From Gammaproteobacteria bacterium (GTDB lineage: Bacteria > Pseudomonadota > Gammaproteobacteria > S012-40), in NCBI GenBank assembly GCA_919902765.1, contig CAKKRP010000028.1, forward strand, positions 6,743 to 70,742: a stretch of DNA of 64,000 bases. Reading direction: 5' to 3'. Under the pieces are notes generated by a model that saw nothing but the letters and a program-made list of their open reading frames with translations, did not search any database and was not told the origin of the DNA. The stretch's first letter is position 1. Each line of letters begins with the position of its first letter. Below are positions 2,907-62,967 of this stretch, piece by piece. Position numbers and translations under genes: made by a program.

Positions 2907-3125
2907 AGCCCCACCCTCCATTGTTTTATTTAAAAATATTTAAAAACCCAATCATACGTTAATATACCCCATGCAGACAAGGCGGGGCTTGAAAATTTTC
3001 AAAAAATCGGTATGTTTGCGCGTGGTGGAACGGCAATGAAACTTTTTTTCGGTTTTGGGTCTAACCGCGCATCGTCGGTAAGGCTAGATGATAGACGGGC
3101 GTCATTTCAAAAAAGAGGTAATACT

Positions 3126-4789: not shown

Positions 4790-4802
4790 GGGAGTTCAGC
4801 AA

Positions 4803-14551: not shown

Positions 14552-16735
14552 ATGGCACAGGTAAAACTGGTCTATAACGCAGATAGGGGTTGGATGATTC
14601 CCATAACCGGAGAAGGGGTAGATAGTAGGCTAGGCGGCGCTCAGTCGAGGATCTGTTATGTCGATGATTCGCGCACCTCCACCTATGTTACAACCAAGGT
14701 TTTGAAGCAATACGGCTACGCGGTTGAACATTTCGAGCGTAGCGATGCTGCGTTAGAGGTTTTGCTGGATCAACATTTTGATCTGTTGTTGTTGGATTTT
14801 GCCGCCTCTGGCGCAGAGGGGTTGGGCGGTGAACACCTAATCCGCATCATACGCGGCAGCGGACATCCACGCAGTGCAGTGTTGCCGATTATCGTATTGG
14901 TGGGGAATAACGATCAAGCGGCGGTAGGTCAACTGAAACAATCCGGCGCCAACGACGTCATCATGAAACCGCTCAAAGGCAAAGAGCTGGACCAGGTGAT
15001 ACGACGCCTAGTCGCAAACTACCATAACCATCTTGGAATGGCCCCTGCGCATAAGGCCGCCGTAACGCCCGCGATAGATAGCGCAAACATCAAATCCAGC
15101 GGTGGGGCGGCATCAACGCGTCCGAAAAAAGTATATTCCGTATTAGAGTTGCAGCAGCGTTTTGGCGAGATTCCGACGGGCAAGACGCAAGAACATTCTG
15201 CTGCGCCGCCTACCCCGGAAACCTCACCTACGTCAGCAGCCCCAGCGGCGCCAAGGTCAACGCAAGATGTTCCGATTTTAGATAATGCCGTGCGCGGCAG
15301 CGAAGAGCGTGGCGCAGACATTACGCAAACAGTCCCCACGCTACAAACGCTGGCGACGATTGTAGATGCGCGTATTGTGGAAAAACTGTCGGCGGCGGTA
15401 GCCCAAAAATCTGAGCAATTGGCGGTCATAGATGCGCGCGGCGAGGTTATCCATGAAGCCGAGACTAAAATGCTACCACTGGCCAAACCTGCTGCGCAAG
15501 CACAAAAAAATAACACACCTGTTACGGATGCTACAACTCCTTTAGACAGTGGGTTGATGGCATTGCTGGAAAAGTTAGAGCACGGTCAAGACCGCACCGC
15601 CCCCAATCCATTTCAAAGTTCGTATATGCCGCCCAAGCTGGATTGGATGGCGCCCGCAAAAAATGTGCTTTCATGGAAGCTGATTGCGATAGGCGTGGGG
15701 ATAGGCGTTGCGATATTCGGGTATCAAAAATGGACTACGCGCGAATCGGCGGCATTCAATGTCGTAGTCGCGGAACGGGGTGCCATTTATGAATCGATTT
15801 CCGTTCCGGCCAAGGTGGTCAGCAAACGCATCGCCGAAATCACACCTTATTCTGCTGGGCAACTGATCAAGATCGAAGTTAAGGAAGGCGATAGCGTCGC
15901 CACCGGGCGGGTCTTAGCGGTATTGGATGACAGGGATGCGCAGAGTAACGTCAAACGCACGCAAGCGACGTTGTTGAGTATGGAAGAAGAAGTCAGCCGT
16001 ACGAACAAAAATCTACAGCGTCTACAACGCGCCCTCGAATTGGGCGCTGTTTCACGCCAACGCGTAGAAGACGCGGAAGGCGAGTGGCGCGCCGCGACCG
16101 CCCGTCAGAGTATTACGGAAGAGGAATTACGCTCTACTAAATTGGCCTTGGAACGGTTGCAAATCGTCGCCCCTTTTGATGGGGTAGTGACCTCTATTAT
16201 CGCGAATTCCGGCAAATGGATCGCGCCACCGGAAATTATCATGACGGTGGTGGATATCGCCGCCCAAGAAGTGATTGCGAAAGTGGATGCCGCCGATGCG
16301 CCGGCGATACAAATCGGCCATGAAGTGATGCTATCTAACGAGTCCTTTGCCGGGAAGAAATGGAAAGAAAAGGTCTCGCGCGTTGCGGCGACCACCAAGA
16401 AAGATAATGCGCCGAATTCGATAGATGTCGTTATTACGCTGAGCGCCAGCGCGCCCGCGTTACGGGTAGGCCAACAAGTGGATGCAGAAATTCGTTTGCG
16501 TGGCAAGTCGGATGTGGTAAAGATCCCTGTGCATGCCTTGATCAACAAAAGCGGATCGCCGATGGTGCCGGTGTTGCAGGGAGACATCGTGCGTCTCGTA
16601 CCGGTGGTGACCGGGATAGAAGATATTACCTCCGTAGAAATAGTGCGTGGGATAGAAGACGGCGAACAAATCGTTATAACAAACGGCAAAGAAGTCAATG
16701 ACGGCCAACACATACGTGTGTTGGGCAATAGTTAA
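14552..16735 (+). CDS. Response-regulator receiver domain fused to HlyD-family membrane fusion protein (periplasmic adaptor)
   Basis: The N-terminus has a CheY-like REC (ICYVDDS…LLLLDF…IIVLVG…IMKPL). A long Ala/Pro/Thr-rich linker and a TM helix (LSWKLIAIGVGIGVAIFGY) follow. The C-terminal region has HlyD/MacA-like biotin-lipoyl and beta-barrel regions (AKVVSKRIAEITPYSAGQLIKIEVKEGDSVATGRVLAVLD…). Confidence 0.75.
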   Translation: MAQVKLVYNADRGWMIPITGEGVDSRLGGAQSRICYVDDSRTSTYVTTKVLKQYGYAVEHFERSDAALEVLLDQHFDLLLLDFAASGAEGLGGEHLIRIIRGSGHPRSAVLPIIVLVGNNDQAAVGQLKQSGANDVIMKPLKGKELDQVIRRLVANYHNHLGMAPAHKAAVTPAIDSANIKSSGGAASTRPKKVYSVLELQQRFGEIPTGKTQEHSAAPPTPETSPTSAAPAAPRSTQDVPILDNAVRGSEERGADITQTVPTLQTLATIVDARIVEKLSAAVAQKSEQLAVIDARGEVIHEAETKMLPLAKPAAQAQKNNTPVTDATTPLDSGLMALLEKLEHGQDRTAPNPFQSSYMPPKLDWMAPAKNVLSWKLIAIGVGIGVAIFGYQKWTTRESAAFNVVVAERGAIYESISVPAKVVSKRIAEITPYSAGQLIKIEVKEGDSVATGRVLAVLDDRDAQSNVKRTQATLLSMEEEVSRTNKNLQRLQRALELGAVSRQRVEDAEGEWRAATARQSITEEELRSTKLALERLQIVAPFDGVVTSIIANSGKWIAPPEIIMTVVDIAAQEVIAKVDAADAPAIQIGHEVMLSNESFAGKKWKEKVSRVAATTKKDNAPNSIDVVITLSASAPALRVGQQVDAEIRLRGKSDVVKIPVHALINKSGSPMVPVLQGDIVRLVPVVTGIEDITSVEIVRGIEDGEQIVITNGKEVNDGQHIRVLGNS

Positions 16736-16804: not shown

Positions 16805-17530
16805 ATGGCGTTTTCTATTCCCAATTTTTCGAGCAACAAAAGCAATGTTCGTCCGATCATACAATTGGAAGGCGTTTCTAAATCATACACCATTGAGCAT
16901 GCCAGCATCGTCGCATTAAACGAAGTTTCGCTGACCATTTACCCCGGTGAATTTGTTGCGGTGACCGGCGCGTCAGGCTCCGGCAAATCGACGTTGATGG
17001 CGCTCATTGGATGCCTGGACCGGCCCGATACCGGCGATATAAACCTGGACGGCGAACCGGTAGGCCACATCAACGATGAGCGGATAGCCACACTACGCAA
17101 TAGAAGAATTGGATTTATTTTCCAGTCGTTTAATTTGATACCACGGTTGACTACGCTGCAAAATGTTGAATTACCAATGGTTTATGCAGGTACTCCACCG
17201 TTGAAAAGGCGTCGGCATGCGATGATTGCGCTGCAAATTGTGGGTATGCAACAACGCGCGCAACATACCCCCACGCAGTTATCCGGCGGGCAGCAACAAC
17301 GTGTCGCGATAGCGCGCGCGCTGGTCAATAACCCCGATATCATACTAGCGGATGAACCGACCGGTAGTTTGGATGCCGGGAATGTCGATGAGGTGATGAA
17401 GTTGCTGTCGCAGCTCAATAAAAACGGCAAAACCATCGTCATAGTCACGCACGATATGCAAGTGGCGAATTACGCGCAGCGCACCCTGTATATGCGCGAC
17501 GGCACTATTATATCGGACATTAGGCGATAA
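16805..17530 (+). CDS. MacB/LolD-type ABC transporter ATP-binding protein
   Basis: Walker [11 protein letters not shown]-loop, signature [15 protein letters not shown] and Walker [12 protein letters not shown] are present. Confidence 0.9.
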
Positions 17531-17532
17531 AC

Positions 17533-18795
17533 GTGCGTACTGCGGCGGATTGGAAAGAATACCTGGGTGAATCCTTAGCGCAAGCGATGTTGGCGTTAAA
17601 GGACAATCGTCAACGCACGTTGATGAGCATTATCGGCGTAGCCGTGGGCATCGCAGCGGTGATGTCGGTAGGCATTGTCAGCCAAGGGGGCAGGCAATAT
17701 ATTTTCAGTGAGTTGGAGAGCTTTGGTCTCAAAACGTTATGGGTTTATCGAGATCGTGACCAGAAAAATTCCTTAGACCTGGCGCGCGAAGGCAGTGGGA
17801 TCACCAATGAAGACTATGCAGCGCTGTTGACCGGCGGTTGTTGCAGTACGGTAGCGCGTTTTAGCGCCGTAGTATATCCCATGGATTGGCAGGCCTCCAT
17901 CAAATTGGGGAGCTTGCAGGTGCGGGCCAATGTAGAGGGTGTGGATACCGAATATCTCAATATTAATAATGACCAAGTGAGTCAAGGGCGTCCGTTTTCC
18001 ACTGAGGATATCAAACGTCGTCAAGCCGTGGTGCTGATCGGCGAGTCGGTACGTAAGTCCTTGTTTAACAATCATCCCTTACCGGTAGGCAAAACCTTGC
18101 GGATAGGCGAAACGCAATTTACTGTGATCGGATTGCTCAAGGAAAAACGCCGGGATTTTTTAACCAGCATGGGCGCAACACAGGAATTTGACGTGAACAA
18201 TCGCGTGTTGATTCCGTATACGCTGTTTCAGCAAATGTTGGGCATACAAGAAATCCAAACGTTACAGGCAGAGGTGTTGGATCAAAAAAAAATTAATCCC
18301 GGGATCGCTGAAATACAGGATTTTTTGTCCAAACAACATCGCGGGCGCTATAAATATAGGGCCGACAGTATGCTCGAATGGACCCAAACCGCGAATCGCA
18401 TTGTCTATGGCATTACGTTTATCGGCGTCTTAGCCGCATCTGTGGCGTTGTTTGTGGGCGGGATAGGGATAATGAATATCATGTCGACCGCCGTGATAGA
18501 ACGCACACGCGAAATCGGTATACGGATGGCGATAGGCGCGAAACGCAAAGACATTTTGTGGCAGTTCCTCATCGAGGCGGCATTGATAAGTCTGATCGGC
18601 GGCCTGCTGGGATTGTTACTCGGTGCGGGCGTGTTGGTGATACTCGCGCGCTGGACGGGTTTTCCGCTGCAAGCGGATGCCGTGTTGATTTTATTGGCCT
18701 TGTTAGTCGCAGTCGGCGTGGGGTTGGCCTCAGGTTTTTATCCGGCGCGGCGCGCCGCTGGGATGAATCCAGTGGATGCCTTGCGCTACGAGTAA
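17533..18795 (+). CDS. ABC transporter permease, FtsX/MacB-like
   Basis: 420 aa with an N-terminal TM, a large periplasmic domain and a C-terminal FtsX-type 3-TM bundle (GIGIMNIMSTAVIERTREIGIRMAIGA). Translationally coupled to the ATPase. Confidence 0.85.
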   Translation: MRTAADWKEYLGESLAQAMLALKDNRQRTLMSIIGVAVGIAAVMSVGIVSQGGRQYIFSELESFGLKTLWVYRDRDQKNSLDLAREGSGITNEDYAALLTGGCCSTVARFSAVVYPMDWQASIKLGSLQVRANVEGVDTEYLNINNDQVSQGRPFSTEDIKRRQAVVLIGESVRKSLFNNHPLPVGKTLRIGETQFTVIGLLKEKRRDFLTSMGATQEFDVNNRVLIPYTLFQQMLGIQEIQTLQAEVLDQKKINPGIAEIQDFLSKQHRGRYKYRADSMLEWTQTANRIVYGITFIGVLAASVALFVGGIGIMNIMSTAVIERTREIGIRMAIGAKRKDILWQFLIEAALISLIGGLLGLLLGAGVLVILARWTGFPLQADAVLILLALLVAVGVGLASGFYPARRAAGMNPVDALRYE

Positions 18796-48084: not shown

Positions 48085-48969
48085 ATGCGCAAAAGCGCAA
48101 AAGATATGGTTAAAAATGTCGCTCAATTGGCGACGTTGCCCGATATTTGCTTACGCGTCAACGAGATCGCTAACGATCCAAAATCTACCGCCAACGATAT
48201 GGGAAAAATTATCGGTCAAGACCCCGCCCTGACCGCGCAAATTCTAAAGGCAGCGAACAGTTCCTATTATAATTCAAACGCCAAGATCGATACCTTGACC
48301 CGTGCGGTGGTGTTACTCGGTTTGCAACAACTGCGTTTTTTGACCGTGAGTATCTGCTCGTTAGATGTCATCGCCAGTTTTAAATTACCCGCCGGTGAAT
48401 TAAAGCGTTTTTGGGAACACAGTTTATACACGGCAATTTGCTCACGTATATTGGCGTCGAAACTGCATGTGCTGAACACCGAACGCTTGTTTGTCATCGG
48501 TTTGTTACATGACATAGGCAAATTGGTCTTTCAACACTCGGCCCCGGAACACTACCGGCGTGCCGCTACTGGTGCCAGCCGGGAGCGTATGCCGCAGTAT
48601 CGCTGGGAACAAGGGACGTTTGGTTTCGACCATGCGGAACTTGGCGCGGAGTTATTGACCCATTGGCGATTGCCGCAAGTGATATGCGACGCAGTGAGGT
48701 TTCATCATGACCCGGAAAGGGCGGGAACCGCGCGCGTAGAAGCAGCACTGGTACACCTCGGGGATGCCATAGCATGGCGCATACAAGGCTCTACAGAGGC
48801 CCAAATAGCGCCGGAAATACATCCCAGTGCCTGGGCGATCACGCGCCTGAATGAACGAATTTTTGACGCCACTGGCGCGCTTGCGCAAAAGCAATTTGCG
48901 GAGGCAATGGAACTCTATAGCGGTTTTACTTCCGAGGCGAGTGTTCGTCAATGGGGGGGGATTGCGTAG
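48085..48969 (+). CDS. HDOD domain signalling protein
   Basis: HDOD motifs (LATLPDICLRVNEIANDPKSTANDMGKIIGQDPALTAQILKAANSSYY…LLHDIGKLVF) with no other output domain. Confidence 0.8.
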   Translation: MRKSAKDMVKNVAQLATLPDICLRVNEIANDPKSTANDMGKIIGQDPALTAQILKAANSSYYNSNAKIDTLTRAVVLLGLQQLRFLTVSICSLDVIASFKLPAGELKRFWEHSLYTAICSRILASKLHVLNTERLFVIGLLHDIGKLVFQHSAPEHYRRAATGASRERMPQYRWEQGTFGFDHAELGAELLTHWRLPQVICDAVRFHHDPERAGTARVEAALVHLGDAIAWRIQGSTEAQIAPEIHPSAWAITRLNERIFDATGALAQKQFAEAMELYSGFTSEASVRQWGGIA

Positions 48970-49174: not shown

Positions 49175-50047
49175 GTGGATAGACGTGGCTTTTTAAAGGC
49201 GTTCGCGTTAGGCACCGTGGTCACTAGTTGTTACCGGTTGTCTGCGCATGCGGAAGACGTTCCATTGGAAGATGTTGAAGATAATTCCGAGCTCGATCTG
49301 AGCGGAGATTTTGACGAGCAGTATATTAAGGACTATCTCGAAAAAATTCATAACTACGATAAGGTTCATAAGGACGATCTTTTTGTCAAACCAAGAGATT
49401 TGCGCACGTTGCGCGGCACAGTGCTACGTTTACAGAAGGTGCAGAACTATGTAGGACCCGCCAATTTTGCATTGTTAAGTTTCGATAATTGTCTAAAACA
49501 TGCGGCGCGCGTTTCGCGCATCGGTGAATTTACCAAGTATGAAATCGAATTTTTAGAATCTATCTTTTATACAAACGCCAAGGATTACGGATTTTTCGGC
49601 GAAAAACCCGTTGATAAATTGACCGCCGCGCCGCATTCCGAAGAAGTCGAAAAGATTTCCGGTACCGGCAATTATTTGATGAGAGGCGCGCCGATAAAAC
49701 TCTATAACAAGATACGCAGGGACATTGGTAATTCCGTTATTCTAACGTCAGGCGTACGCGGCGTGATGAAACAAATGCATTTATTCTTGACCAAGACGAT
49801 CGCTTCCGGTGGCAACCTGTCGATGGCGTCGCGGTCATTGGCGCCACCGGGACATTCGTTCCATGGGGTAGGCGATTTCGATGTAGGCAAAGTCGGTTGG
49901 GGGGCGCGTAATTTCACCGAATATTTTGCCGACACCATGGAATACCGGCGGTTGACCGACATGGGCTTCATCAAAATTCGTTACCCTGAAGACAATTTTT
50001 TGGGTGTACGTTTTGAACCCTGGCACATCAAAGTCAACAGTGCATAA
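49175..50047 (+). CDS. Tat-secreted peptidase M15 (VanY-like D-Ala-D-Ala carboxypeptidase family)
   Basis: Twin-arginine signal MDRRGFLKAFALG. The C-terminus has an M15 metal-ligand pattern (…PGHSFHGVGDFDVG…FEPWHIKV). Confidence 0.6.
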   Translation: MDRRGFLKAFALGTVVTSCYRLSAHAEDVPLEDVEDNSELDLSGDFDEQYIKDYLEKIHNYDKVHKDDLFVKPRDLRTLRGTVLRLQKVQNYVGPANFALLSFDNCLKHAARVSRIGEFTKYEIEFLESIFYTNAKDYGFFGEKPVDKLTAAPHSEEVEKISGTGNYLMRGAPIKLYNKIRRDIGNSVILTSGVRGVMKQMHLFLTKTIASGGNLSMASRSLAPPGHSFHGVGDFDVGKVGWGARNFTEYFADTMEYRRLTDMGFIKIRYPEDNFLGVRFEPWHIKVNSA

Positions 50048-50670
50048 TTATGCAATTGCCAAAAAATAGTAGTCGCTAAGATGTCTTCTATGGTCTAATC
50101 CCCCCCTTTGTCCCTCTAACGTTAATATCTCGCAAGTTGTGACAGCCGCTGTGTTTTAGTGTCAACCGCTAGGCTGTTACCCCGTTACAGGTTGTCGGGA
50201 GGGCACGACAATGACCTTGGATAGCGTAAACCTACGTTGCATTGATTTATTTTTCCGCCCGCGCGTGCAGGCATTGCATTGGCCGGTAGACTTATTTTGG
50301 CGATTACCGGACCATGCGCGCCGTGACGCCAATGTACTGCGCGAACCCAGCGTAAATTTATTTGAGCTTGAGGTGTTGCTCTCGACTGCGGCAAATGTGC
50401 CGTCGTTGTGCGCGCAATTTTTGGACCTGCATATGCCCAATCGTGGCGAATTTATACGCCTATCAATGCGGCGGGGTAGAATACCGATGTTGAGTCCGGC
50501 GTGCGCGGCAGCACTCCAAGCCGCTGCGTAAGTTTAACCCAAATTTCCCAATCCTCAGTGCGCCGTAACGGCGCACGCCCGCTTGCTGGCACGCCTCGGT
50601 TTGGTGCATCAGCACCTGTCCCCACGCATTAATATTGCGTAAATAACTGATTATTATATATATTTTAGGA

Positions 50671-50684
50671 TGGCACGTAAGCTG
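50671..50684 (+). promoter_or_regulatory. Putative sigma-54 (-24/-12) promoter upstream of narK-like gene
   Basis: TGGCAC-gtaag-CTGCT fits the GG-N10-GC sigma-54 consensus (TGGCAC-N5-TTGCW). It lies about 35 nt upstream of the transporter start codon. Confidence 0.5.
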
Positions 50685-50716
50685 CTGATAGCCTTCGACG
50701 GCAGCGTGCCGGAAGC

Positions 50717-52006
50717 GTGTCGAGAGCAGTTATGAATTTTCGTGAATTTAAACAAGCGGGCCATTGGCCCACCTTACTAGCCGCGTTTTTATATTTTGAT
50801 GTGAGTTTTATGGTGTGGGTGGTATTAGGCCCGCTGTCACTTTATGTCAGTCAAGATTTGGCGTTGAGTATTGAAGAAAAATTTACGATAGTGGCGGTGC
50901 CGATACTCGCAGGTGCATTGTTGCGTATGCCACTGGGTTTTCTCGCAGATCACATAGGGCCAAAACGCACCGGTATTGCAGCGCAGTCTATCGTTATTGC
51001 AGGAATGGCCTACGCCTGGATTTTTGGTTTGCATTCCAAGGTCGAGGTGGAATTATTGGGTATTGTTTTAGGTGTGGCAGGCGCAAGTTTCGCAGTAGCG
51101 CTGCCACAAGCCTCGCGGTGGTATCCGCCTAAATATCAAGGGGCGGTCATGGGTATCGCGGGTGCCGGAAATATGGGCGTCGTGCTCGATTCGATGTTTG
51201 TACCGTGGATGGCGGAACATTGGGGTTGGCAATCCGTGTTTGGTATATTGATTATCCCGTTAGCAATAGTACTCGGCCTATATAGTTTGATGGCCAAAGA
51301 TGCGCCTCAGTCACGCGCGCCGGTATCGTTAAAAAATTATGCTGTAGTGTTGCAAGATCGCGATACTTGGTGGTTTATGTTTTTTTATTCCATCACGTTC
51401 GGTGGCTTCGTGGGCCTAGGGAATGCGTTGCCGATTTATTTCACCCATTGGTATCACGCATCTGGAATCACGGCGGGGCTATTGGCCGCCTGCGTGGTAC
51501 TGGCGGGTTCGATGGCGCGGCCCGTCGGTGGGGTCGTCGCGGATCGTTTTGGCGGTATACGTACGCTACAGATTTTATTTGTGTTCATCGCATGCACCTA
51601 TGGTGCAGTAGCGCTGCTGCCGCAAGGACCTGCGCCCACGATGCTGGATGGCGCAAAGGTTGCGGGCTGGACGTTAGCGGAATTGCCCGCGATTGCATGG
51701 ATTGCAATGACAATATTTTTATTGGGCGCGACCGCGTTAGGGATGGGCAACGGATCGGTGTTTCAATTGGTGCCGTTGCGATTTCGCAACGAAATCGGCG
51801 TCATGACGGGCCTGGTCGGTGCCGCAGGCGGAATCGGAGGCTTTTTTCTGGCCAAGTCCTTAGGACTATCGAAAGGCATAACCGGGGGATTTACGGCCGG
51901 ATTTTCGATATTTGCCGGGCTCGCAATCATCGGGCTCGTTGGCTTGGTAGTCGTTAAAACGCGTTGGCGCACTACGTGGGGCGCGGTGTCAGGTGCGCGC
52001 GTGTGA
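50717..52006 (+). CDS. narK: MFS nitrate/nitrite transporter (NNP family, NarK/NasA-like)
   Basis: 12-TM MFS protein with glycine-rich nitrate/nitrite porter signature regions (…GIAGAGNMGVV…, …GLVGAAGGIGGFF…). First gene of the nitrate assimilation cluster. Confidence 0.85.
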   Translation: MSRAVMNFREFKQAGHWPTLLAAFLYFDVSFMVWVVLGPLSLYVSQDLALSIEEKFTIVAVPILAGALLRMPLGFLADHIGPKRTGIAAQSIVIAGMAYAWIFGLHSKVEVELLGIVLGVAGASFAVALPQASRWYPPKYQGAVMGIAGAGNMGVVLDSMFVPWMAEHWGWQSVFGILIIPLAIVLGLYSLMAKDAPQSRAPVSLKNYAVVLQDRDTWWFMFFYSITFGGFVGLGNALPIYFTHWYHASGITAGLLAACVVLAGSMARPVGGVVADRFGGIRTLQILFVFIACTYGAVALLPQGPAPTMLDGAKVAGWTLAELPAIAWIAMTIFLLGATALGMGNGSVFQLVPLRFRNEIGVMTGLVGAAGGIGGFFLAKSLGLSKGITGGFTAGFSIFAGLAIIGLVGLVVVKTRWRTTWGAVSGARV

Positions 52007-52043: not shown

Positions 52044-53759
52044 TTGATGATGACCCAATCCGCAATGGAAGTTCGTGTCGGCTTTTTAACTGAGGCAGGG
52101 CGGCGACCCAGCAACGACGATTTTATTTTGGCTGCAATGGGAGAAAACTCCCTGCTTGCCGACGTTGTGGTTTCGATCGCGGACGGCACGGGTGGAAGCC
52201 CGGAGGGGAGGATGGCGGCAGAAACCGCCGTACGCGGATTTTTAGACGCCTACCTCCACCAACCAAAAACCCTCAGCGTAGAACGCGCCGCCGCCAATGC
52301 GTTAAATTGCATGAATAATTGGCTATATGCGCAAGGTCGTAGCGGCCACCATCGCGAAGGATTGGTAACGACATTCACCGCATTAATTTTACGCGCACGC
52401 GAAGCGCATATTGTGCATGTCGGCGATACGCGTATTTATCGCTTGCGTGGCGAACGCCTGGCGCGTTTAACGCAGGATCACACCCATCCGCATCCCGATT
52501 TACATCATGTGTTGGTGCGCGCAGTGGGGATGGAAGATCAAGTGCGTGCGGACTATCAGCGCCATTCATTGGAGGCGCACGATAGATTTTTATTGTGTAC
52601 CGACGGCGTACACGCGGCATTGAACGAGGGAAAAATATGCGCCCTTATGGCGATGCGCGGCACCCCGCAAGAAGACGCGGCGCGTATTGTCGAGTCCGCG
52701 CTAGCAGCGAGTGGACAAGACAACGCCACGGCGTTGGTATTGGATATTTTGGCCTTACCTTCTGCGTTACATAGAGACATCGAATCGTCATTAGCGGAAT
52801 TACCCATCGCGGAGTTACCGCAGGCCGGAGAAATCACTGATGGCTATCGGTTGTTGTCCGCAATCTCAAATGGACGCTATAGCCGATTATTCCATGCGTT
52901 AGATACAAAAAATTCTAATCGCGAAGTGGCGCTGAAATTCCCACATCCACGAGTGGCGCAAGATGCAATTTATAGAAGTGCATTTACGCGCGAATCGTGG
53001 GTGGCCTCTCAAGTGCAAAGTCCGTATCTCGCGGAAGTAATCGAACCGGAACCGGGCCGCCGTACGCGTTTATACGTGGTAATGCCGTTTTATCGCGGTG
53101 AAACGTTAGAATGTAGACTAAAACGTCAACCTGCGGTGAGCTTGGTCGAAGGAGTGGATATTGCGATCAAATTATCTAAGGCGATCTACGCGCTCAATCG
53201 TAGGCGAATCATACACCGCGATATTAAACCGGAAAATATTTTATTGGAACTAGGCGCTGCGGGCGCAAGTGGTTTACGCTTGATCGATTTGGGGGTGGCG
53301 CGTCTGCCCGACGTAAACGCTGACGGCGATGTAGTTCCGGGTACGCCCAGTTACATGGCGCCCGAGTTGATTCTTGGACAAGCCGGTGATGAATTCTCTG
53401 AGGTATACGCGCTAGGTGTTAGTTTGTATCGCATGTGGAGCGGTGGTGAATATCCGTACGGAGAAATAGAACCCTTCTCTACGCCACGCTATACAAAACG
53501 TGTTGCGCTGGCGCGTTACCGTCCTGATCTTCCCGCGTGGCTTGATCAAGTGTTAGCGCGCGCAACCGCAGTTGATCCCGCACAACGCTATGCCGACACC
53601 ATGGAATTCGCATTTGAATTGGAAAACGCGGCGCTCAAAGGGGCGCAATTACGCGTGCGGCACAGCCCCTTAATAGAACGCGATCCGGTGCGATTTTGGC
53701 AGGTGATTTCTGCAATTTTATTGTTAATGTTGATTCTAGCATTGGCGTTCCACAGTTGA
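52044..53759 (+). CDS. PP2C-type Ser/Thr phosphatase fused to Hanks-type Ser/Thr protein kinase, C-terminal TM anchor
   Basis: N-terminal PP2C motifs (GRRPSNDD, ADGTGGS, VGDTRIY, LTQDH, CTDGV, QDNATALV). The C-terminal kinase carries VALKF, HRDIKPENILL, IDLGVAR and GTPSYMAPE. The terminal hydrophobic helix is FWQVISAILLLMLILALAF. Confidence 0.8.
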   Translation: MMMTQSAMEVRVGFLTEAGRRPSNDDFILAAMGENSLLADVVVSIADGTGGSPEGRMAAETAVRGFLDAYLHQPKTLSVERAAANALNCMNNWLYAQGRSGHHREGLVTTFTALILRAREAHIVHVGDTRIYRLRGERLARLTQDHTHPHPDLHHVLVRAVGMEDQVRADYQRHSLEAHDRFLLCTDGVHAALNEGKICALMAMRGTPQEDAARIVESALAASGQDNATALVLDILALPSALHRDIESSLAELPIAELPQAGEITDGYRLLSAISNGRYSRLFHALDTKNSNREVALKFPHPRVAQDAIYRSAFTRESWVASQVQSPYLAEVIEPEPGRRTRLYVVMPFYRGETLECRLKRQPAVSLVEGVDIAIKLSKAIYALNRRRIIHRDIKPENILLELGAAGASGLRLIDLGVARLPDVNADGDVVPGTPSYMAPELILGQAGDEFSEVYALGVSLYRMWSGGEYPYGEIEPFSTPRYTKRVALARYRPDLPAWLDQVLARATAVDPAQRYADTMEFAFELENAALKGAQLRVRHSPLIERDPVRFWQVISAILLLMLILALAFHS

Positions 53760-53798: not shown

Positions 53799-53815
53799 TG
53801 CACCATAGTGGTGCA
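53799..53815 (+). promoter_or_regulatory. NtrC (NR-I) binding site
   Basis: Perfect palindrome TGCACCA-tag-TGGTGCA, which is the NtrC consensus TGCACCA-N3-TGGTGCA. It lies about 120 bp upstream of a sigma-54 promoter. Confidence 0.65.
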
Positions 53816-53935: not shown

Positions 53936-53950
53936 TGGCATGGAGCTTGC
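53936..53950 (+). promoter_or_regulatory. Sigma-54 promoter for nirBD-nasA
   Basis: TGGCAT-ggagc-TTGC matches the -24 GG / -12 GC spacing of sigma-54 promoters. It lies about 45 nt upstream of the nirB GTG start, which has a GGAGGTGG SD. Confidence 0.6.
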
Positions 53951-53993
53951 CGAGTGACTACTAATAGGCGCTTGGTGCCGACGGAGGTGGAAC

Positions 53994-56447
53994 GTGCAAG
54001 AGCAATTGGTTTTGGTCGGTAATGGTATGGCGGGTGTGCGTACATTGGAAGAATTATTAAAAATTGCGCCTGATAAATATGCTATCACGGTGTTTGGTGC
54101 GGAATGTTACGGAAATTACAATCGCATTTTGTTATCACCGGTGCTCGCCGGAGAAAAAAACGTCGATGACATCATGTTGAATGATGAACAATGGTATGTA
54201 GACAATAAAATAACCTTGCACAAAGGCAAGACCATTACACATATTGACCGGCGCAAACGTATCGTCGTCGCGGACGACGGCACCACCGCGCATTATGATC
54301 GCTTACTGCTAGCGACAGGCTCCGATCCCTTCATTTTGCCGATTCCGGGCAGCCACCTGCCCGGCGTAATCAGTTTCCGCGATTTGCATGACGTAGAAAT
54401 TATGTTGGAAACATCGCGCAATTATAAACACGCGGTCGTTATCGGGGGCGGATTGTTAGGATTGGAAGCCGCCAACGGCCTGCGCAAACAAGGTATGAGC
54501 GTAACCGTCGTGCATATTCATGGCCATTTGATGGAACGCCAACTCGATTATGCGGCCGCTAGCCTATTAAAAAAAGCCATGGAACAAGACGGCATACGCT
54601 TTTTTTTAGAAAAAAATACGGCTGCTATTTTAGGACAGGAACGTGTCACCGGAATCCAATTCAAAGATGACCAGCGCATAGATGCAGACCTCGTGGTCAT
54701 GGCGGCCGGTATACGCCCGAATATACGTTTGGCAAAATCGGTGGGCCTGCAATGCGATAAAGGTGTATTGGTCAATGACACGATGCAAACCTTCGACCCC
54801 CGCATTTACGCGGTCGGCGAGTGCGTACAACATAGGGGCAGTACCTACGGATTGGTCGCACCTTTGTTCGAGCAAGCAAAGGTGTGTGCAAATCATTTAG
54901 CAGCCTACGGTATCGCGCGTTACGAAGGTAGCGTGACATCTACGAAGTTAAAAGTGACCGGTATCGAAGTGTTTTCCGCCGGAAATTTCCATAGCACGGA
55001 TAAAGACGACGAAATCGTGTTTACCGATGGCGCGCGCGGTATTTATAAAAAAATAGTACTACGCAACAATAAAATTCAAGGCGCGGTACTCTATGGTGAC
55101 ACCATGGACGGCGCTTGGTACTTCCAACTTATGCGTGAAAAGGCGGATGTTGCGCACATGCGCGACAATATCTTGTTCGGTCAAGCGCATCTAGGAGACG
55201 CCGGGCATGGCGATGAAAAACAACACGTCAACGCCTTGCCCGCGAATGCCGAGATTTGCGGCTGTAACGGCGTATGTAAAGGCACCATAGTTGACGCCAT
55301 TATCAATAAAAAACTGTTTACCTTGGATGAAGTGCGCGCGCACACCAAGGCATCTAGTTCTTGTGGTTCATGCACGGGATTGGTGGAATCGTTGTTAGCG
55401 GCTACGGTGGGCGGAGACTATTCAGCCAATCCCAAAAAGAAACCGTTGTGTCATTGTACCGATTACGCGCATGATGAAGTGCGCACGCTCATCGACAAGC
55501 GCGGGTTGAAATCTATGGATACCGCCATGCGTTCGATGGATTGGAAAACGCCGGACGGATGCCATGTGTGTCGGCCGGCCTTAAATTTCTATTTGCTCGC
55601 GCGATGGCCTGCGGAATATCAAGATGATGCGCAATCGCGCTTGGTCAACGAGCGTATGCACGCGAATATTCAAAAAGATGGAACATACTCCGTGGTGCCG
55701 CGCATATGGGGCGGTGTGACCAATCCTGCCGAACTGCGTGCGATTGCGGATGTCGCGGAAAAATATCAAATCCCGTCGGTGAAAATTACCGGGGGGCAAC
55801 GTATAGATCTGCTGGGGGTGACCAAGGAACAACTGCCCGCCGTATGGGCGGATTTGACCGAGGCGGGATTCGTATCCGGTCATGCCTATGGAAAATCCCT
55901 GCGCACCGTAAAAACATGTGTGGGCTCGGAATGGTGCCGTTACGGTACGCAGGATTCCACGGGCATGGGTGTCAAATTGGAAAAACTTACGTGGGGATCG
56001 TGGACGCCCCACAAATTCAAAATGGCCGTTTCCGGTTGTCCGCGCAATTGCGCTGAAGCCACCATAAAAGATTTTGGCGTGGTCGCGGTGGATTCGGGTT
56101 GGGAGCTACATGTAGGCGGTAACGGCGGTGTGAAAGTGCGTGCGACCGATTTCTTGTGTAAGGTGAATAGCGAGGCCGAGGTGATGGAATATGCTGCGGC
56201 CTTCATGCAGCTTTATCGTGAAGACGCCCGTTATTTGGAACGCACCGCGCCGTGGATAGAACGTGTGGGCCTTGCCTATGTAAAGCAACACATCGTCGAA
56301 AATGAGATTCGACGCAAACAATTGTATGAAAGTTTTAAAGACTCGCAACGCGCAGCGCAACACGACCCGTGGGCGCGTTTAAGCGCCGGTAACCATGCCG
56401 AGGGGTTCAAGACGTTAACAATGTCGAATCAAGAGGAGGTCGCGTGA
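53994..56447 (+). CDS. nirB: Assimilatory nitrite reductase [NAD(P)H] large subunit
   Basis: N-terminal FAD/NAD Rossmann fold (LVLVGNGMAGVRTLEEL), a BFD-like 2Fe-2S region, and a siroheme/4Fe-4S sulfite-nitrite reductase domain (…TCVGSEWCRYG…SGCPRNCAEA…). 817 aa. Confidence 0.95.
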   Translation: MQEQLVLVGNGMAGVRTLEELLKIAPDKYAITVFGAECYGNYNRILLSPVLAGEKNVDDIMLNDEQWYVDNKITLHKGKTITHIDRRKRIVVADDGTTAHYDRLLLATGSDPFILPIPGSHLPGVISFRDLHDVEIMLETSRNYKHAVVIGGGLLGLEAANGLRKQGMSVTVVHIHGHLMERQLDYAAASLLKKAMEQDGIRFFLEKNTAAILGQERVTGIQFKDDQRIDADLVVMAAGIRPNIRLAKSVGLQCDKGVLVNDTMQTFDPRIYAVGECVQHRGSTYGLVAPLFEQAKVCANHLAAYGIARYEGSVTSTKLKVTGIEVFSAGNFHSTDKDDEIVFTDGARGIYKKIVLRNNKIQGAVLYGDTMDGAWYFQLMREKADVAHMRDNILFGQAHLGDAGHGDEKQHVNALPANAEICGCNGVCKGTIVDAIINKKLFTLDEVRAHTKASSSCGSCTGLVESLLAATVGGDYSANPKKKPLCHCTDYAHDEVRTLIDKRGLKSMDTAMRSMDWKTPDGCHVCRPALNFYLLARWPAEYQDDAQSRLVNERMHANIQKDGTYSVVPRIWGGVTNPAELRAIADVAEKYQIPSVKITGGQRIDLLGVTKEQLPAVWADLTEAGFVSGHAYGKSLRTVKTCVGSEWCRYGTQDSTGMGVKLEKLTWGSWTPHKFKMAVSGCPRNCAEATIKDFGVVAVDSGWELHVGGNGGVKVRATDFLCKVNSEAEVMEYAAAFMQLYREDARYLERTAPWIERVGLAYVKQHIVENEIRRKQLYESFKDSQRAAQHDPWARLSAGNHAEGFKTLTMSNQEEVA

Positions 56448-56782
56448 GTGCATTGGCAGGCAACACAGAATTGGTTTGGCAACGCGTAGGCGCTGCGCAC
56501 ACGATACCCCGCCAAGGGGCGAGGGTGGTCAAAATAGGCGAGGTTAACGTTGCGATATTCAAAAATGTCAGCGATGAAATTTTTGCACTTGAAGATCGCT
56601 GCCCGCATAAAGGCGGGCCTTTGTCGCAAGGCATCGTACATGGGCGGCGCGTGACCTGTCCATTACATAACTGGGTGATAGAATTGCATGATGGCAATGC
56701 CGTCGCGCCGGATATCGGCTGCGTCAAGACCTTTAGCACCAAAGTGGTCAATGGCGACCTCTATATCGCGTTGTCGAAATGA
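56444..56782 (+). CDS. nirD: Nitrite reductase small subunit (Rieske-like)
   Basis: 112 aa with a Rieske-type fold (…EDRCPHKGGPLSQG…RRVTCPLHNW…), overlapping the nirB stop. Confidence 0.85.
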   Translation: MSALAGNTELVWQRVGAAHTIPRQGARVVKIGEVNVAIFKNVSDEIFALEDRCPHKGGPLSQGIVHGRRVTCPLHNWVIELHDGNAVAPDIGCVKTFSTKVVNGDLYIALSK

Positions 56783-56821: not shown

Positions 56822-59473
56822 ATGCCATCTATACCTACCACCTGTCCTTATTGTGGCGTAGGGTGCGGCCTTATTGCGGAGCCGCAAGGAGATACCTTTG
56901 CGGTGCGCCCGGATCGCGATCACCCCGCCAATCTTGGACGTATATGTACCAAAGGGGCCACGTTAGGTGAGACGCTAGGCTTGCAGGGACGCATCTTAGC
57001 GCCTCTGGTACGGGGGCAAGAGACCGGTTGGGATGCAGCGTTGGAAGAAGTCGCCGGTTCATTTTCGCGCATCATCGCCGAACACGGCCCAGACGCGGTG
57101 GCGTTTTATGTGTCCGGGCAATTGCTTACCGAAGACTATTATGTCGCCAATAAATTGATGAAAGGATTTATCGGTAGCGGCAACATAGATACCAATTCTA
57201 GATTGTGTATGGCATCGGCGGTGGCGGCGCACAAACGCGCCTTTGGCGAGGACATTGTGCCGGGGAATTATGCCGACATCGAGCAGTCGGATCTTACGAT
57301 ATTGGTAGGCTCCAACATGGCGTGGACGCACCCGGTGTTGTACCAACGCCTCGCTGCGTCAAAAGAAAAAAATCCACACAAGCGCGTTGTCGTGATAGAT
57401 CCAAGGCGTACCGCGAGTTGCGATATTGCAGATCTACATTTGGCATTAAAACCAGGTACGGACGGATATTTATACAATGGTTTACTGAATTTTTTGCGCC
57501 GCGAAAACGCCTTCGATTGGGATTATTTAGAACACCACACCCACGGCTTTGCCGCGACACTTAAAGCGGCGCAGGAAAGCAGTGGGACGCTGCCGCAAGT
57601 GGCGCAGGACTGCGGGCTTGACGCCGCGCAGGTTGCACAATTTTACCGTTGGTTCGCACAAACGGCTAAAACCACGACCCTGTTTTCGCAAGGCATCAAT
57701 CAATCGTCTAGCGGTGTAGATAAAGGCAATGCGATTATCAACGTACATCTCGCAACGGGGCGCGTGGGCAAACCCGGTGCGAGCCCGTTCTCATTAACTG
57801 GGCAACCGAACGCGATGGGCGGGCGCGAAGTGGGTGGTCTGGCCAACACTTTGGCGGCACACATGGATTTTGCGCCGGAAAATTGCGCTATGGTCGGCGA
57901 ATTTTGGCAAACATCGCGCATCGCAACTCAGCCCGGCTACAAGGCGGTGGACATGTTCGAGGCCATTGCCGACGGGCGCATTAAGGCGGTTTGGATTATG
58001 GGCACCAATCCAGTGGTCAGCTTGCCGAATTCCGGACATATACGTGCAGCGCTAAAAAAATGTTCTTGTGTGATCGTCTCCGATTGCGCGCGATATACCG
58101 ACACCACGGCCTATGCGCATGTGCTATTGCCTGCCGCCGCGTGGGGAGAAAAGAGCGGCACAGTGACCAATTCCGAACGTTGTATATCGCGACAACGCGC
58201 TTTTTTGCCGACCCCAGGCTTGGCGCAGCCCGATTGGTGGATAATCACCCAGGTAGCGCACAAATTGGGTTACGCGAAGTCCTTTGATTACACGTCCAGC
58301 GCGCAGATTTTTCGCGAACACGCCGCCCTCAGCGCATACCATAATCATGGCCAACGCATTTTTGATATCGGCGCTTACGCGGATATCAGCGATCAACAAT
58401 ACGAGGCATTAACACCTATGCAATGGCCGTTGCCGGTGAACGTCCATCGAGGCACTGCGCGCCTATTTGCGCACGGTGGATTTGCGACGGCAAACCATAA
58501 GGCGCAATGGACGCCGATCATTCCGCGTGCTCCCCATGTAGCCGCAAATACAACATATCCGTTCATGCTTAACACCGGCCGGGTGCGTGATCAGTGGCAC
58601 ACGATGACACGCACGGCAAAAGTCCCACGTTTGTTGCAACACATCAGCGAGCCCTTGTTGTATATGCAACCATTGGATGCGCAACGCCTGGGCATGATCA
58701 ATGGCGACATCGCGCGCGTTACTTCTGCGCATGGTTTTGCGCTAGCACGAGTTGAATTTTCGCACGATATTGGCGCTGGCCAGTTATTTATGCCTATGCA
58801 TTGGAATGCGCAATTTGCCGTAAATGGCAGCGTTAATGCGATGGTTGCCTCGACCGTCGATCCGATTTCAGGACAACCGGAATTCAAGGCGACGGCGGTA
58901 CATGTGCGGCCTTTTAACGCGGCGTGGTATGCGGTGCTATTCACCACCGTGCCGATTGATACGGTTATGCCTGAATATTGCGTGCGCGTACCAGAGTCCA
59001 GTGTGACCCGATATGAAATGGCGGATACTAAAACTGCGTTAGACTGGCATACGTGGTTCGAGCAATTAATAAAAGATAGCGATGAGATCATCAAATATGC
59101 GGATCAACGGTTAGGTATAGTGCGTATGGGTAGCGTGCGCGCGGGGCAACTGCAAGCGGTACTATTTGTGTCGCCCAAACCGGTGATCGTTGATCGCGCG
59201 TGGTTGGCTGCGTTATTTGTGACGCCCATGTTGGCTACGCATGATCGCTCCGCGATACTGAGCGGACGCCCTCCAGTAGGGCGTGTCGAGGGCGGGGCGA
59301 TGGTATGTATTTGCATGGGTGTGCAGCGCAATACAATCGAACGCGCTATACACGCGCAAGGCGTTACGAACCTACAGGAATTACAAACATTAACTACCGC
59401 AGGTACATGCTGCGGCGCATGCGTGCCGCAATTGCAAGCGATCTTGACGCAAAATATGTTGCGCGCAGGTTAA
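56822..59473 (+). CDS. nasA: Assimilatory nitrate reductase catalytic subunit (molybdopterin oxidoreductase) with C-terminal BFD-like [2Fe-2S] domain
   Basis: N-terminal 4Fe-4S motif CPYCGVGCG…C, MGD-binding domains, and a C-terminal CICMGV…CCGAC BFD-like cluster motif. 883 aa. Confidence 0.9.
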   Translation: MPSIPTTCPYCGVGCGLIAEPQGDTFAVRPDRDHPANLGRICTKGATLGETLGLQGRILAPLVRGQETGWDAALEEVAGSFSRIIAEHGPDAVAFYVSGQLLTEDYYVANKLMKGFIGSGNIDTNSRLCMASAVAAHKRAFGEDIVPGNYADIEQSDLTILVGSNMAWTHPVLYQRLAASKEKNPHKRVVVIDPRRTASCDIADLHLALKPGTDGYLYNGLLNFLRRENAFDWDYLEHHTHGFAATLKAAQESSGTLPQVAQDCGLDAAQVAQFYRWFAQTAKTTTLFSQGINQSSSGVDKGNAIINVHLATGRVGKPGASPFSLTGQPNAMGGREVGGLANTLAAHMDFAPENCAMVGEFWQTSRIATQPGYKAVDMFEAIADGRIKAVWIMGTNPVVSLPNSGHIRAALKKCSCVIVSDCARYTDTTAYAHVLLPAAAWGEKSGTVTNSERCISRQRAFLPTPGLAQPDWWIITQVAHKLGYAKSFDYTSSAQIFREHAALSAYHNHGQRIFDIGAYADISDQQYEALTPMQWPLPVNVHRGTARLFAHGGFATANHKAQWTPIIPRAPHVAANTTYPFMLNTGRVRDQWHTMTRTAKVPRLLQHISEPLLYMQPLDAQRLGMINGDIARVTSAHGFALARVEFSHDIGAGQLFMPMHWNAQFAVNGSVNAMVASTVDPISGQPEFKATAVHVRPFNAAWYAVLFTTVPIDTVMPEYCVRVPESSVTRYEMADTKTALDWHTWFEQLIKDSDEIIKYADQRLGIVRMGSVRAGQLQAVLFVSPKPVIVDRAWLAALFVTPMLATHDRSAILSGRPPVGRVEGGAMVCICMGVQRNTIERAIHAQGVTNLQELQTLTTAGTCCGACVPQLQAILTQNMLRAG

Positions 59474-62070: not shown

Positions 62071-62475
62071 TTATGTGGTACTAATTTCTTTGAGCAATTC
62101 GGGGTGTCGATCCAATAACTGAAATAGCTTCACCAGCGCGAGCGGCGGCTTAGTCCTGCCGCTCTCGTAACGAGAAAACGCATTGACTCCACCGCCGAAA
62201 ATCAACGCTGCTTCGCGCTGGTCTAGACCAAGTTTTTTACGCACCTTGGCGATAAAAGCGGGATCAATGATGGAGGCGTTCACCTGTTTATTAAACTTCA
62301 CCATCGCCTGATGGGTGCGCGCAGATTCTGTAACGCCTAACACAATCTCTCCACAAGCAGAGCAGTATTCACCCATCACTGCGGGAATTGTGAATGTCTC
62401 GCCTTTATAGATATAGGGGATGTCACGCGTATCATGCACCAGTGTGGCCGCTCCGCAAGATGGACACTGCATCTT
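62071..62475 (-). CDS. mqsA: MqsA-like antitoxin (YgiT-type zinc finger + XRE HTH)
   Basis: N-terminal CxxC…CxxC zinc ribbon (MQCPSCGAATLVHDTRDIPYIYKGETFTIPAVMGEYCSACGEIVL) resembling MqsA/YgiT, and a C-terminal HTH (…LGLDQREAALIFGGGVNAFSRYESG…). No mqsR-like ORF is adjacent. Confidence 0.65.
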   Translation of the reverse strand, partial: KMQCPSCGAATLVHDTRDIPYIYKGETFTIPAVMGEYCSACGEIVLGVTESARTHQAMVKFNKQVNASIIDPAFIAKVRKKLGLDQREAALIFGGGVNAFSRYESGRTKPPLALVKLFQLLDRHPELLKEISTT

Positions 62476-62967
62476 ATCGCTCCTTGAAGACGCATTAGGC
62501 GCATCTTCTGTCAGAACCAAATCGATATTATCGAAAAATACGTTTTATTAGGCCGCATTTATTTGATACATAATAATATTGCGTGTGGTAGATAAGTCGC
62601 GACGTTATTTGCCAACGTTAACCAAGTAGGTAGTCGGCTAAAAGGACTTTATACTTGAGTCTATTGGGCGTTGACCGTGTATAGAAGAGGACTGAAGCGT
62701 TAATGCGTTTTTGAAGCCTTCAGGCGATATTTTTGGAGCTATTCTAGAGCAACGTTTGGGGTGAGGTACAACGTCTTACTTGTGGATAAAATGAAGTAAC
62801 TTTCGCTTTTTTGAGTATTGGTATTTAATAATATAGTAAAGGCCGCATGTAGCGGCCTTTCATTTGGTGCTCTGAAAGCTTGTTAGCGGACAGGGCGCAT
62901 TTCCCGATGTAGTAACAAGGTGTACTATACATATCGTCAATAGGGAAATCAACTATCAGGGGGAAGT

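Follow-up and report, generated by a model that had tools for sequence, protein, structure and literature searches.

A fused PP2C phosphatase and Ser/Thr kinase encoded beside a NarK-type transporter gene: a candidate phospho-switch for nitrate uptake

The closest described relatives of the protein analysed here are found in Pseudomonas. An architecture that combines a PP2C phosphatase with a Ser/Thr kinase was reported as new and uncharacterised in P. aeruginosa, P. putida and P. syringae (Krupa and Srinivasan 2005, PMC1262709). An expression table of P. aeruginosa gives the order PA1783 nasA, PA1782 ppkB, PA1781 nirB (PMC6954232), and for Pseudomonas sp. UW4 the order nasST-nasA-ppkB-nasDEC-cobA was published in 2013, with ppkB being PputUW4_03641; the same paper, arguing from what is seen in Arabidopsis and Hansenula, speculates about phosphorylation of the transporter by the kinase (PMC3596284). 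PA1782 was still a predicted, unstudied kinase in 2021 and 2024 (PMC8560001, PMC11197903), and a functional study of any family member was not found in the open-access literature, only genome-annotation mentions. The present analysis concerns a PP2C/kinase fusion gene in a nitrate-assimilation cluster of a gammaproteobacterium, on a stretch of 64,000 nt of contig CAKKRP010000028.1 (assembly GCA_919902765.1), which is called the window throughout. The fusion shares the PP2C and kinase architecture of PA1782 and PputUW4_03641 (PMC1262709), and its gene stands in the same nasA-ppkB-nirB order (PMC6954232, PMC3596284), whereas nasST is adjacent in Pseudomonas and no such regulator is encoded within the 64 kb of the window.

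The family is widespread and annotated, and its place in nas clusters was already known. New here are a rule that the partner gene encodes a nitrogen transporter, a conserved sigma-54-type promoter motif ahead of the narK-fusion pair, and a threonine pair in the tail of the transporter as the candidate target. We give about an even chance to the reading that the fusion is a transporter-coupled phospho-switch that tunes nitrate uptake.

The fusion protein and its family

The open reading frame (ORF) of the fusion runs on the plus strand from a TTG at position 52044 to position 53759, and the next codon, ATG 52047, is the likelier start. The resulting 570-aa product is identical to the deposited protein P0001 of a metagenome-assembled genome and to the gene call of the European Nucleotide Archive (ENA) on a groundwater-metagenome contig. 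Pfam matched PP2C_2 (53.7 bits, cutoff 24) to residues 24-194 and Pkinase (97.8 bits, cutoff 31.7) to residues 269-469. In the Kyte-Doolittle profile, the sole segment with a value above 1.7 covers residues 550-568, two residues short of the C-terminus, and W551 and the hydrophobic tail are kept family-wide in the alignments. An AlphaFold2 model built with 97 homologues was confident (mean pLDDT 88.9, pTM 0.64) and contained two globular domains, followed by a long terminal helix at residues 547-569. The single C-terminal hydrophobic segment points to a tail-anchored protein, with the PP2C and kinase domains both predicted to lie on the cytoplasmic side. An extracytoplasmic sensor, a periplasmic domain or a recognisable ligand-binding domain was not found in the fusion by Pfam, hydropathy or the AlphaFold2 model. 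No PDB entry spanned both domains (query-normalised TM-score at most 0.41); the nearest solved folds covered one domain each, namely PknI and PknB for the kinase and tPphA, PstP and STP for the phosphatase.

The catalytic residues were followed in alignments of 20 homologues, then of 97, and then of 29 very diverse members with identities down to 27%. Among the 29, the PP2C metal ligands (D25, D46-G47, D127, D186-G187 and D225) as well as the kinase residues K297, E316, H390, D392, N397, D414 and E440 were invariant, and by these residues both the phosphatase and the kinase are predicted to be catalytically intact. The kinase has an atypical glycine-rich loop. Its sequence in the NarK clade is S-[DN]-G-R-Y-S-R-L-F, with one glycine where GxGxxG is expected, and the DFG motif of this clade reads DLG. 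The activation loop contains no conserved Ser/Thr except for the GT(P)S of the P+1 segment; therefore, the fused phosphatase is not obviously present merely for resetting the kinase. Chance adjacency and a pseudo-enzyme were considered as readings and rejected, given the invariant catalytic residues and a linkage that recurs across classes.

A word-indexed homologue search yielded 7,262 significant matches. The best 120 of them all have about 560-600 aa, the same two domains and 56-69% identity, and they come from Gammaproteobacteria, Burkholderiaceae, Nitrospirota, Sulfuricaulis and others. An exhaustive search of representatives at 50% identity gave 1,596 clusters at E <=1e-30, nearly all of them full-length with 555-600 aa. 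P0001 (100% identical) and dozens of homologues carry the NCBI name 'bifunctional protein-serine/threonine kinase/phosphatase', and the window protein is 27-52% identical to annotated plasmid-borne members with that name. With an N-terminal PP2C domain, a Hanks kinase behind it, a length in the range of 555-600 aa and a single C-terminal transmembrane helix, the window fusion belongs to the PA1782/'PpkB' family, the link to PA1782 being made via published descriptions.

An earlier interpretation made from the letters of the window alone (the sequence-only reading) had described the product as one membrane-anchored polypeptide with a complete PP2C phosphatase and a complete Hanks kinase. The two Pfam scores, each over its cutoff, the invariant residues and the C-terminal helix bear this description out, and degenerate catalytic residues, named there as grounds for doubt, were seen in none of the 29 members. 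The same reading had called the fusion an unusual solution for this pathway. This part had to be given up, as there are more than 7,000 homologues, an NCBI product name is in use, and PA1782 stands in the order nasA-PA1782-nirB (PMC6954232, PMC3596284, PMC1262709).

Partner genes across related loci

The fusion gene of the window lies between a NarK-type transporter gene upstream and the genes of NirB, NirD and a nitrate reductase downstream (Table 1), just as the sequence-only reading had placed it. The transporter scored 116.8 bits with Pfam MFS_1, and its best NCBIfam match was TIGR00886 of the NarK family, at 258.5 bits and under the cutoff of 311.7. Its nearest PDB sequences are E. coli NarU (E 1e-18) and NarK (E 9e-16), its hydropathy profile contains about 12 hydrophobic segments, and its annotated homologues bear the name nitrate/nitrite transporter.

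The survey of fusion-gene neighbourhoods took in about 36 distinct loci, some from genomes or metagenomes and others from annotated plasmids or chromids. In a metagenome scan, 72 of 80 loci contained ordinary kinases, and family members were found only at L022-L029, six of them full length. A nitrogen-related transporter gene stood immediately beside the fusion gene in nearly all of the about 36 loci and within one gene in the rest, usually upstream and on the same strand. The sole exception in the survey was locus L016 of A. caldus, which has no adjoining transporter gene and insertion sequences on both flanks.

Fusions of the short NarK clade are 50-69% identical to the window protein. In the window and at L004, L008, L009, L010, L012, L112, L113, L114 and L115, the gene directly ahead of the fusion, in the same orientation, encodes a NarK of about 425 aa; this also holds for L027, though the fusion there is only 37% identical. 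The short narK gene is nearby in another orientation, divergent or convergent, at L011, L014 and L116. The last of these is a plasmid of Azospirillum thermophilum (NZ_CP029357.1), on which the fusion gene is located between a convergent gene of the formate/nitrite family (FNT) and a divergent NarK gene whose product has the tail RWRTTWGA. At L008, L010, L113 and L115, the narK-fusion pair stands alone between secDF and glyA-nrdR, and no nir or nas gene is present within 9-10 kb. At L112 and L114, the fusions (56-61% identical) are part of the cluster nasT (receiver and ANTAR domains)-nrtA-nrtB-nrtC-narK-fusion-nirB-nirD-nasA, and the narK-fusion pair of the Nitrospirota locus L009 directly follows amtB-glnB. 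As a separate observation, a second protein of about 431 aa with Pkinase and weak ABC1 matches is encoded about 5-7 kb downstream of the fusion at L008 (16052-17350, minus strand) and L113 (17410-18705, minus strand); both genes fall in the secDF-narK-fusion-glyA-nrdR-rib synteny block.

The remaining clades have other partners. In the long NarK/MFS clade (about 30% identity; L019, L110 and L111, from Thioclava, Catenovulum and Vibrio), the transporter has about 490 aa. In the FNT clade (29-34% identity; L015, L017, L018, L020, L106, L108 and L109), an FNT channel gene lies directly upstream, often together with a cyanase gene (cynS). The hosts are Azospirillum, Methylobacterium, Cupriavidus, Ideonella, Pseudoalteromonas, Psychrobacter and twelve Acinetobacter plasmids, and in Pseudoalteromonas and Ideonella (L020 and L106) a NasR or NIT protein is encoded beside the FNT-fusion pair. 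In the APC clade (39-41% identity; L001, L013 and L026), the partner is an APC permease gene, which is preceded by a GlxD-type gene of the glutamate-synthase family. In the Amt clade (47-48% identity), the gene of an Amt ammonium transporter is divergently adjacent in four out of four loci (L022-L025). A neighbour-joining tree of 29 fusion proteins had clades that track the type of the partner transporter. Because the adjacency is repeated and pairs without reductases exist, the conserved partner of the family is the nitrogen-source transporter and not the reductases. A lack of preferential linkage to nas genes was a further ground for doubt named in the sequence-only reading; the homologues are linked to nas and nitrogen-transport genes.

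One highly conserved subfamily of the FNT channel, with 62-84% identity across classes, accompanies cynS on small and large plasmids, with or without a kinase/phosphatase gene (L017, L018, L120, L123 and L107, from Psychrobacter, Acinetobacter, Moraxella, Rhizobium and Sulfitobacter). The FNT-cynS combination looks like a mobile module for the handling of cyanate and nitrite.

The position of the fusion gene ahead of nirB could also mean that the kinase and phosphatase act on NirBD or NasA and modulate reductase activity, similar to the phosphorylation of plant nitrate reductase. The start of nirB is only about 170-235 nt 3' of the fusion gene in the window and at L004, L112 and L114, which fits such a role. 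We regard it as very improbable, because the narK-fusion pair occurs without reductases, at the four loci named above. In addition, the other clades go with APC, Amt or FNT and cyanase, without a nitrate or nitrite reductase, and soluble enzymes as targets would need no membrane tethering.

A further explanation, which is that of the sequence-only reading, gives the fusion the place of NasR, NasS/NasT or NarXL: it would be the dedicated nitrate/nitrite sensor that switches the whole nas operon on or off. The fusion gene indeed lies inside the nitrate cluster, and the reported absence of the canonical sensors from the window was confirmed: a Pfam sweep of its ORFs of at least 150 aa detected no ANTAR, NIT, NMT1/NasS, NarX or NarL protein, which may be encoded elsewhere in the genome, and leader RNAs were likewise missing from the 64 kb. 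However, the homologues at L112 and L114 lie in clusters that also encode NasT and NrtABC, UW4 has nasST-nasA-ppkB (PMC3596284), and a NasR or NIT protein accompanies the FNT-fusion pair in Pseudoalteromonas and Ideonella. Moreover, the fusion lacks a recognisable ligand-binding or periplasmic domain, and the narK-fusion pair is also found without reductase genes. Replacement of the known sensors is therefore improbable in our view. A regulatory switch for nitrate assimilation, as the sequence-only reading proposed, is credible; as a stand-in for NasR or NasS/NasT it is unlikely, given the coexistence at L112, L114, L020, L106 and in UW4.

NarK tail, expression signals and the proposed switch

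For the phospho-switch reading, the cytoplasmic C-terminal tail of NarK offers a candidate site. The motif RWRTTWGA was invariant in 13 of 13 fusion-linked short NarKs, which end, straight after the last transmembrane helix, in VK-x-RWRTTWGA-x(2-5)-A-[RQHK]-[VI]. The TT pair was found in none of seven NarK homologues (45-52% identity) from clusters without a fusion, several of which carry nasT-nasS. The tails of these unlinked NarKs read RWRATW, RWRRSW, QWKKTW, RRSWNK, RWRADF, GWRSRW and RWRATW, and a related basic/aromatic pattern is kept. Taken at face value, 13/13 versus 0/7 corresponds to a Fisher probability of about 1e-5, for 20 sequences that are phylogenetically non-independent.

Two predicted promoters flank the fusion gene. 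The sigma-54-type pattern TGGCAY-N5-YTGCY has exactly two matches in the window, both on the plus strand, where 0.43 are expected by chance; one is ahead of narK and the other ahead of nirB (Table 1). A motif of this type was present 45-81 nt 5' of narK in nine of nine loci in which narK heads the pair; it was missing 5' of narK in two loci in which narK is internal to the nirBD operon. At the Nitrospirota locus L009, an equivalent motif stands ahead of the downstream reductase gene. The consensus used to scan for NtrC palindromes is established knowledge, and TGCACCATAGTGGTGCA at 53799 is the sole zero-mismatch match in the window. The inverted repeat TGCGCCGTAACGGCGCA ahead of narK fits the NtrC-type pattern with two mismatches; it may serve as an activator site or mark where the transcript of an orphan 106-aa ORF ends. 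This ORF (50211-50531, plus strand), which is directly 5' of narK and is gene-called on the ENA contig, was weighed as a possible further component but dismissed: neither Pfam nor NCBIfam matched it, related loci have no relative of it, and it is dissimilar to the 106-aa ORF of L004.

The gap between narK and the fusion gene is 40 nt in the window and 16-118 nt across loci. A terminator scan found no terminator-like site between the two genes; over the whole window it was near background, with 17 sites versus 13.4 expected. A leader or terminator was not found ahead of narK or nirB either, and Rfam detected nothing but a tRNA in the window. Only about 30-45 nt follow the sigma-54-type motif in the 5' regions of narK and nirB, which is therefore too short for a leader terminator of the NasT/NasR type. 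The sigma-54-type motifs and the short gaps without a terminator suggest that narK and the fusion gene form one nitrogen-limitation (sigma-54) transcription unit and nirBD-nasA a second. Narrower than this, the co-transcription of narK and the fusion gene is probable.

The proposed switch would work as follows. The fusion would be held at the inner face of the membrane by its C-terminal helix, with an active PP2C and an active kinase on one chain, and would be made together with the NarK/NasA-type transporter from a sigma-54 promoter that responds to nitrogen limitation via an NtrC-type activator. Between them, the kinase and the opposing phosphatase would determine how far the co-encoded transporter is phosphorylated, most plausibly at the threonine pair of the RWRTTWGA tail, and nitrate uptake would thereby be adjusted post-translationally to the nitrogen status of the cell. 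The output would be set by the ratio of opposing activities on one protein, as in AceK or NtrB. Candidates for the input signal are a metabolite that reports nitrogen status, a PII protein, or the transport state itself. The switch would be a layer added to the transcriptional control by NtrC and NasT/NasR and would replace neither. The domains, the intact catalytic residues, the topology, the operon context and the family-wide linkage to nitrogen transporters are observed; the transporter as the substrate, the modified residue, the direction of the effect and the input signal are what we infer.

Several points weigh against this proposal. The tail correlation comes from only 20 phylogenetically non-independent sequences, and for an unlinked NarK, a fusion gene at another place in the same genome could do the work. 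PA1782 is only predicted (PMC11197903), and the evidence for the family is sequence-based. The partner transporters have four unrelated folds, which are hard to fit with one mode of substrate recognition. For the FNT partners, the tail TH[VYI][RK]T was tried as a linkage signature and rejected: it is also present in three of four FNTs without an adjacent fusion, so that linkage is not generally marked by a tail signature. Finally, adjacency is equally compatible with the transporter being a co-sensor instead of a substrate.

According to this last alternative, the fusion would read the transport or occupancy state of the neighbouring transporter and phosphorylate a soluble regulator, for instance a PII-type protein or a factor of transcription or antitermination. 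In that case, gene expression or metabolism would respond and not transporter activity, like in AmtB-GlnK, DctA-DcuS and Amt-histidine-kinase fusions. The same adjacency data support it, and the four unrelated folds are easier to square with a common soluble target. The amtB-glnB genes next to the pair at L009 and the closest solved PP2C fold, tPphA, a homologue of the cyanobacterial PII phosphatase, also point in this direction. Furthermore, nitrate-specific induction is unexplained in the window, which lacks a NasT/NasR-type regulator and in which the 5' regions of narK and nirB are too short for a leader terminator. On the other hand, no candidate substrate gene is kept beside the fusion across clades, and the coexistence with NasT, NasR or NIT proteins elsewhere makes the fusion unneeded there as a nitrate sensor. 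Proteobacterial PII is known to be uridylylated and not Ser-phosphorylated, and the strict RWRTTWGA tail of linked NarKs points at the transporter. We consider a co-sensor, the main rival of the phospho-switch reading, possible but rather doubtful.

The phospho-switch reading can be extended to the whole family, which would then form a general, so far unrecognised class of membrane-tethered kinase/phosphatase switches that each gate the adjacent transporter via reversible phosphorylation of a tail threonine. The substrates transported would be nitrate (NarK), nitrite or cyanate (FNT), ammonium (Amt) and amines or amino acids (the APC permease). For this extension, our confidence is tentative and clearly lower than for nitrate uptake.

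Neighbouring genes and comparison with known systems

The positions of the features discussed are compiled in Table 1. The nitrate reductase had NasC and NasA among its top NCBIfam matches after Fdh-alpha, all under their cutoffs. It has 883 aa with a fused BFD domain and no 4Fe-4S/DmsC-like partner, whereas relatives have a nitrate reductase of about 727-737 aa followed by a protein of about 600 aa with 4Fe-4S and DmsC-like domains; therefore, the electron-transfer arrangement differs in the window. Just 5' of the nitrate cluster, an HDOD/HD-domain signalling protein (48085-48969, plus strand) and a VanY-like D,D-carboxypeptidase (49175-50047, plus strand) are encoded, and a link of either to the nitrate cluster was not found at related loci.

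Table 1. Positions of the fusion gene, its partner genes and predicted signals (window coordinates unless a locus is named)
Feature	Position	Strand	Remarks
Inverted repeat TGCGCCGTAACGGCGCA; perfect 8-bp arms GTGCGCCG-TAA-CGGCGCAC (50558-50576)	50559..50575		about 95 nt 5' of narK promoter motif
Sigma-54-type promoter motif TGGCAC-N5-CTGCT	50671..50686	+	61 nt 5' of narK ATG
narK/nasA-type nitrate (NNP-family MFS) transporter	50732..52006	+	424 aa; MFS_1, TIGR00886, PDB matches
Codons of NarK C-terminal tail motif RWRTTWGA	51962..51985	+	candidate phospho-acceptor or docking site
PP2C phosphatase / Hanks Ser/Thr kinase gene	52047..53759	+	570 aa plus stop
PP2C phosphatase domain, about aa 8-236	52068..52754	+	Pfam PP2C_2/SpoIIE
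Hanks-type Ser/Thr kinase domain, about aa 263-530	52833..53636	+	Pfam Pkinase
C-terminal transmembrane tail anchor, aa 547-569	53685..53753	+	hydropathy and AlphaFold2 helix
NtrC-type palindrome TGCACCATAGTGGTGCA, perfect, predicted site	53799..53815	.	about 120 nt 5' of nirB promoter motif
Sigma-54-type promoter motif TGGCAT-N5-TTGCC	53936..53951	+	58 nt 5' of nirB GTG
nirB, assimilatory NAD(P)H nitrite reductase large subunit	53994..56447	+	TIGR02374, 961 bits vs cutoff 578
nirD, nitrite reductase small subunit	56444..56782	+	TIGR02378, 97 bits vs cutoff 75
nasA/nasC-type assimilatory nitrate reductase, C-terminal BFD [2Fe-2S]	56822..59473	+	Pfam Molybdop_Fe4S4, Molybdopterin, Molydop_binding, Fer2_BFD
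4Fe-4S/DmsC-like genes (about 600 aa) at related loci	L004 16949-18787; L009 14171-15943; L112 15997-17793; L114 15993-17789		

Three further features of the window lie outside the nitrate cluster. In one ORF (14552-16735, plus strand), a response-regulator receiver at the N-terminus is joined to an HlyD-type membrane-fusion protein, and the ORF is followed by the genes of a MacB-type ABC ATPase (16805-17530) and an FtsX-like permease (17533-18795); as a phosphorelay-controlled efflux adaptor, its product would be of unusual architecture. A full-length MqsA-type antitoxin (202.9 bits with Pfam) is encoded at 62071-62520 on the minus strand. The MqsR toxin gene would be expected just ahead of it in the same orientation, but ORFs of 50 aa or more were not found there, and the antitoxin may be an orphan. 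A four-gene cassette (3012-7783, plus strand) of an ABC ATPase, an ABC-2 permease, a GldG-like auxiliary protein (ABC_transp_aux and DUF7088) and a DUF4340 protein belongs to the gliding-motility-associated ABC export systems and is uncharacterised.

Among characterised bacterial systems, the kinase-phosphatase pairs PknB-PstP of Mycobacterium, PrkC-PrpC of Bacillus and Stk1-Stp1 share catalytic folds and motifs with the fusion, and the opposing activities are co-encoded in each case. The best NCBIfam matches of the fusion are PknB_PASTA_kin and Stp1_PP2C_phos. However, the window protein is one chain with the phosphatase first, whereas the two activities reside on separate proteins in the pairs. 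The fusion has no PASTA or extracellular sensor and is anchored by its C-terminal tail, and PknB-type kinases are anchored by a mid-chain transmembrane helix. Its glycine-rich loop is atypical compared with theirs, and it is encoded with a nitrogen transporter, whereas the partners of PknB-PstP-type pairs are cell-wall or division genes. With NF033483 (Stk1/PknB PASTA), the fusion scored 135.2 bits versus a cutoff of 450, and only the kinase core, positions 6-270 of the 563 in the profile, matched; PASTA repeats are not present in the fusion, which has no sequence beyond the transmembrane helix. With NF033484 (Stp1/IreP), it scored 131.7 bits where the cutoff is 230, and the phosphatase domain shares its chain with the kinase instead of standing alone. 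By these profile scores, the fusion is classified as neither a PASTA kinase nor a stand-alone Stp1 phosphatase.

NasS/NasT and NasR resemble the fusion in being encoded in or beside nas clusters and in controlling nitrate assimilation, the latter being a proposed role for the fusion. They act with ANTAR, NIT and NrtA-like domains and RNA antitermination, whereas the fusion has none of these domains. AceK, HPr kinase/phosphorylase and NtrB combine opposing activities on one protein, as the fusion does, and such a combination gives robust, ratio-type control of one substrate. These proteins have unrelated folds, with one active site or one domain family, whereas the fusion consists of two eukaryote-type domains.

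A likeness to the proposed switch is found in eukaryotes. Phospho-control of nitrogen transporters is regarded as a feature of plants and yeast: Arabidopsis NRT2.1 is activated by the PP2C CEPH, NRT1.1 and AMT1 are under the control of CIPK23, and yeast Ynt1 is under the control of Npr1, and cytoplasmic tails or loops are the sites of action. NRT2.1 and Ynt1 belong to the same NNP/NarK family as the window transporter. Unlike the fusion, the eukaryotic kinases are soluble, are recruited differently and are not encoded with the transporter; the likeness is one of logic only. We know of no demonstrated phosphorylation of a bacterial NarK or NasA and of no bacterial case of such transporter phospho-control. 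To our knowledge, the rapid adjustment of nitrate uptake to changes in nitrogen supply in heterotrophic bacteria, which takes place within seconds, is also poorly understood outside cyanobacteria.

The comparison matters since the family is widespread in Proteobacteria and Nitrospirota, including the model organism P. aeruginosa, and its members go with nitrogen transporters of at least four kinds. The hypothesis of a switch on the transporter is concrete and within reach of standard genetics. If it is true, phospho-control of nitrogen transporters exists in bacteria too, and a function would be gained for about 1,600 sequence clusters of one family, for which the present annotation names the domains alone. 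The more tentative general class, if it exists, could be the missing mechanism by which ammonium rapidly shuts off the uptake of nitrate in heterotrophic bacteria, and it would be the bacterial counterpart of the control of NRT and AMT transporters by CIPK23 and PP2C in plants.

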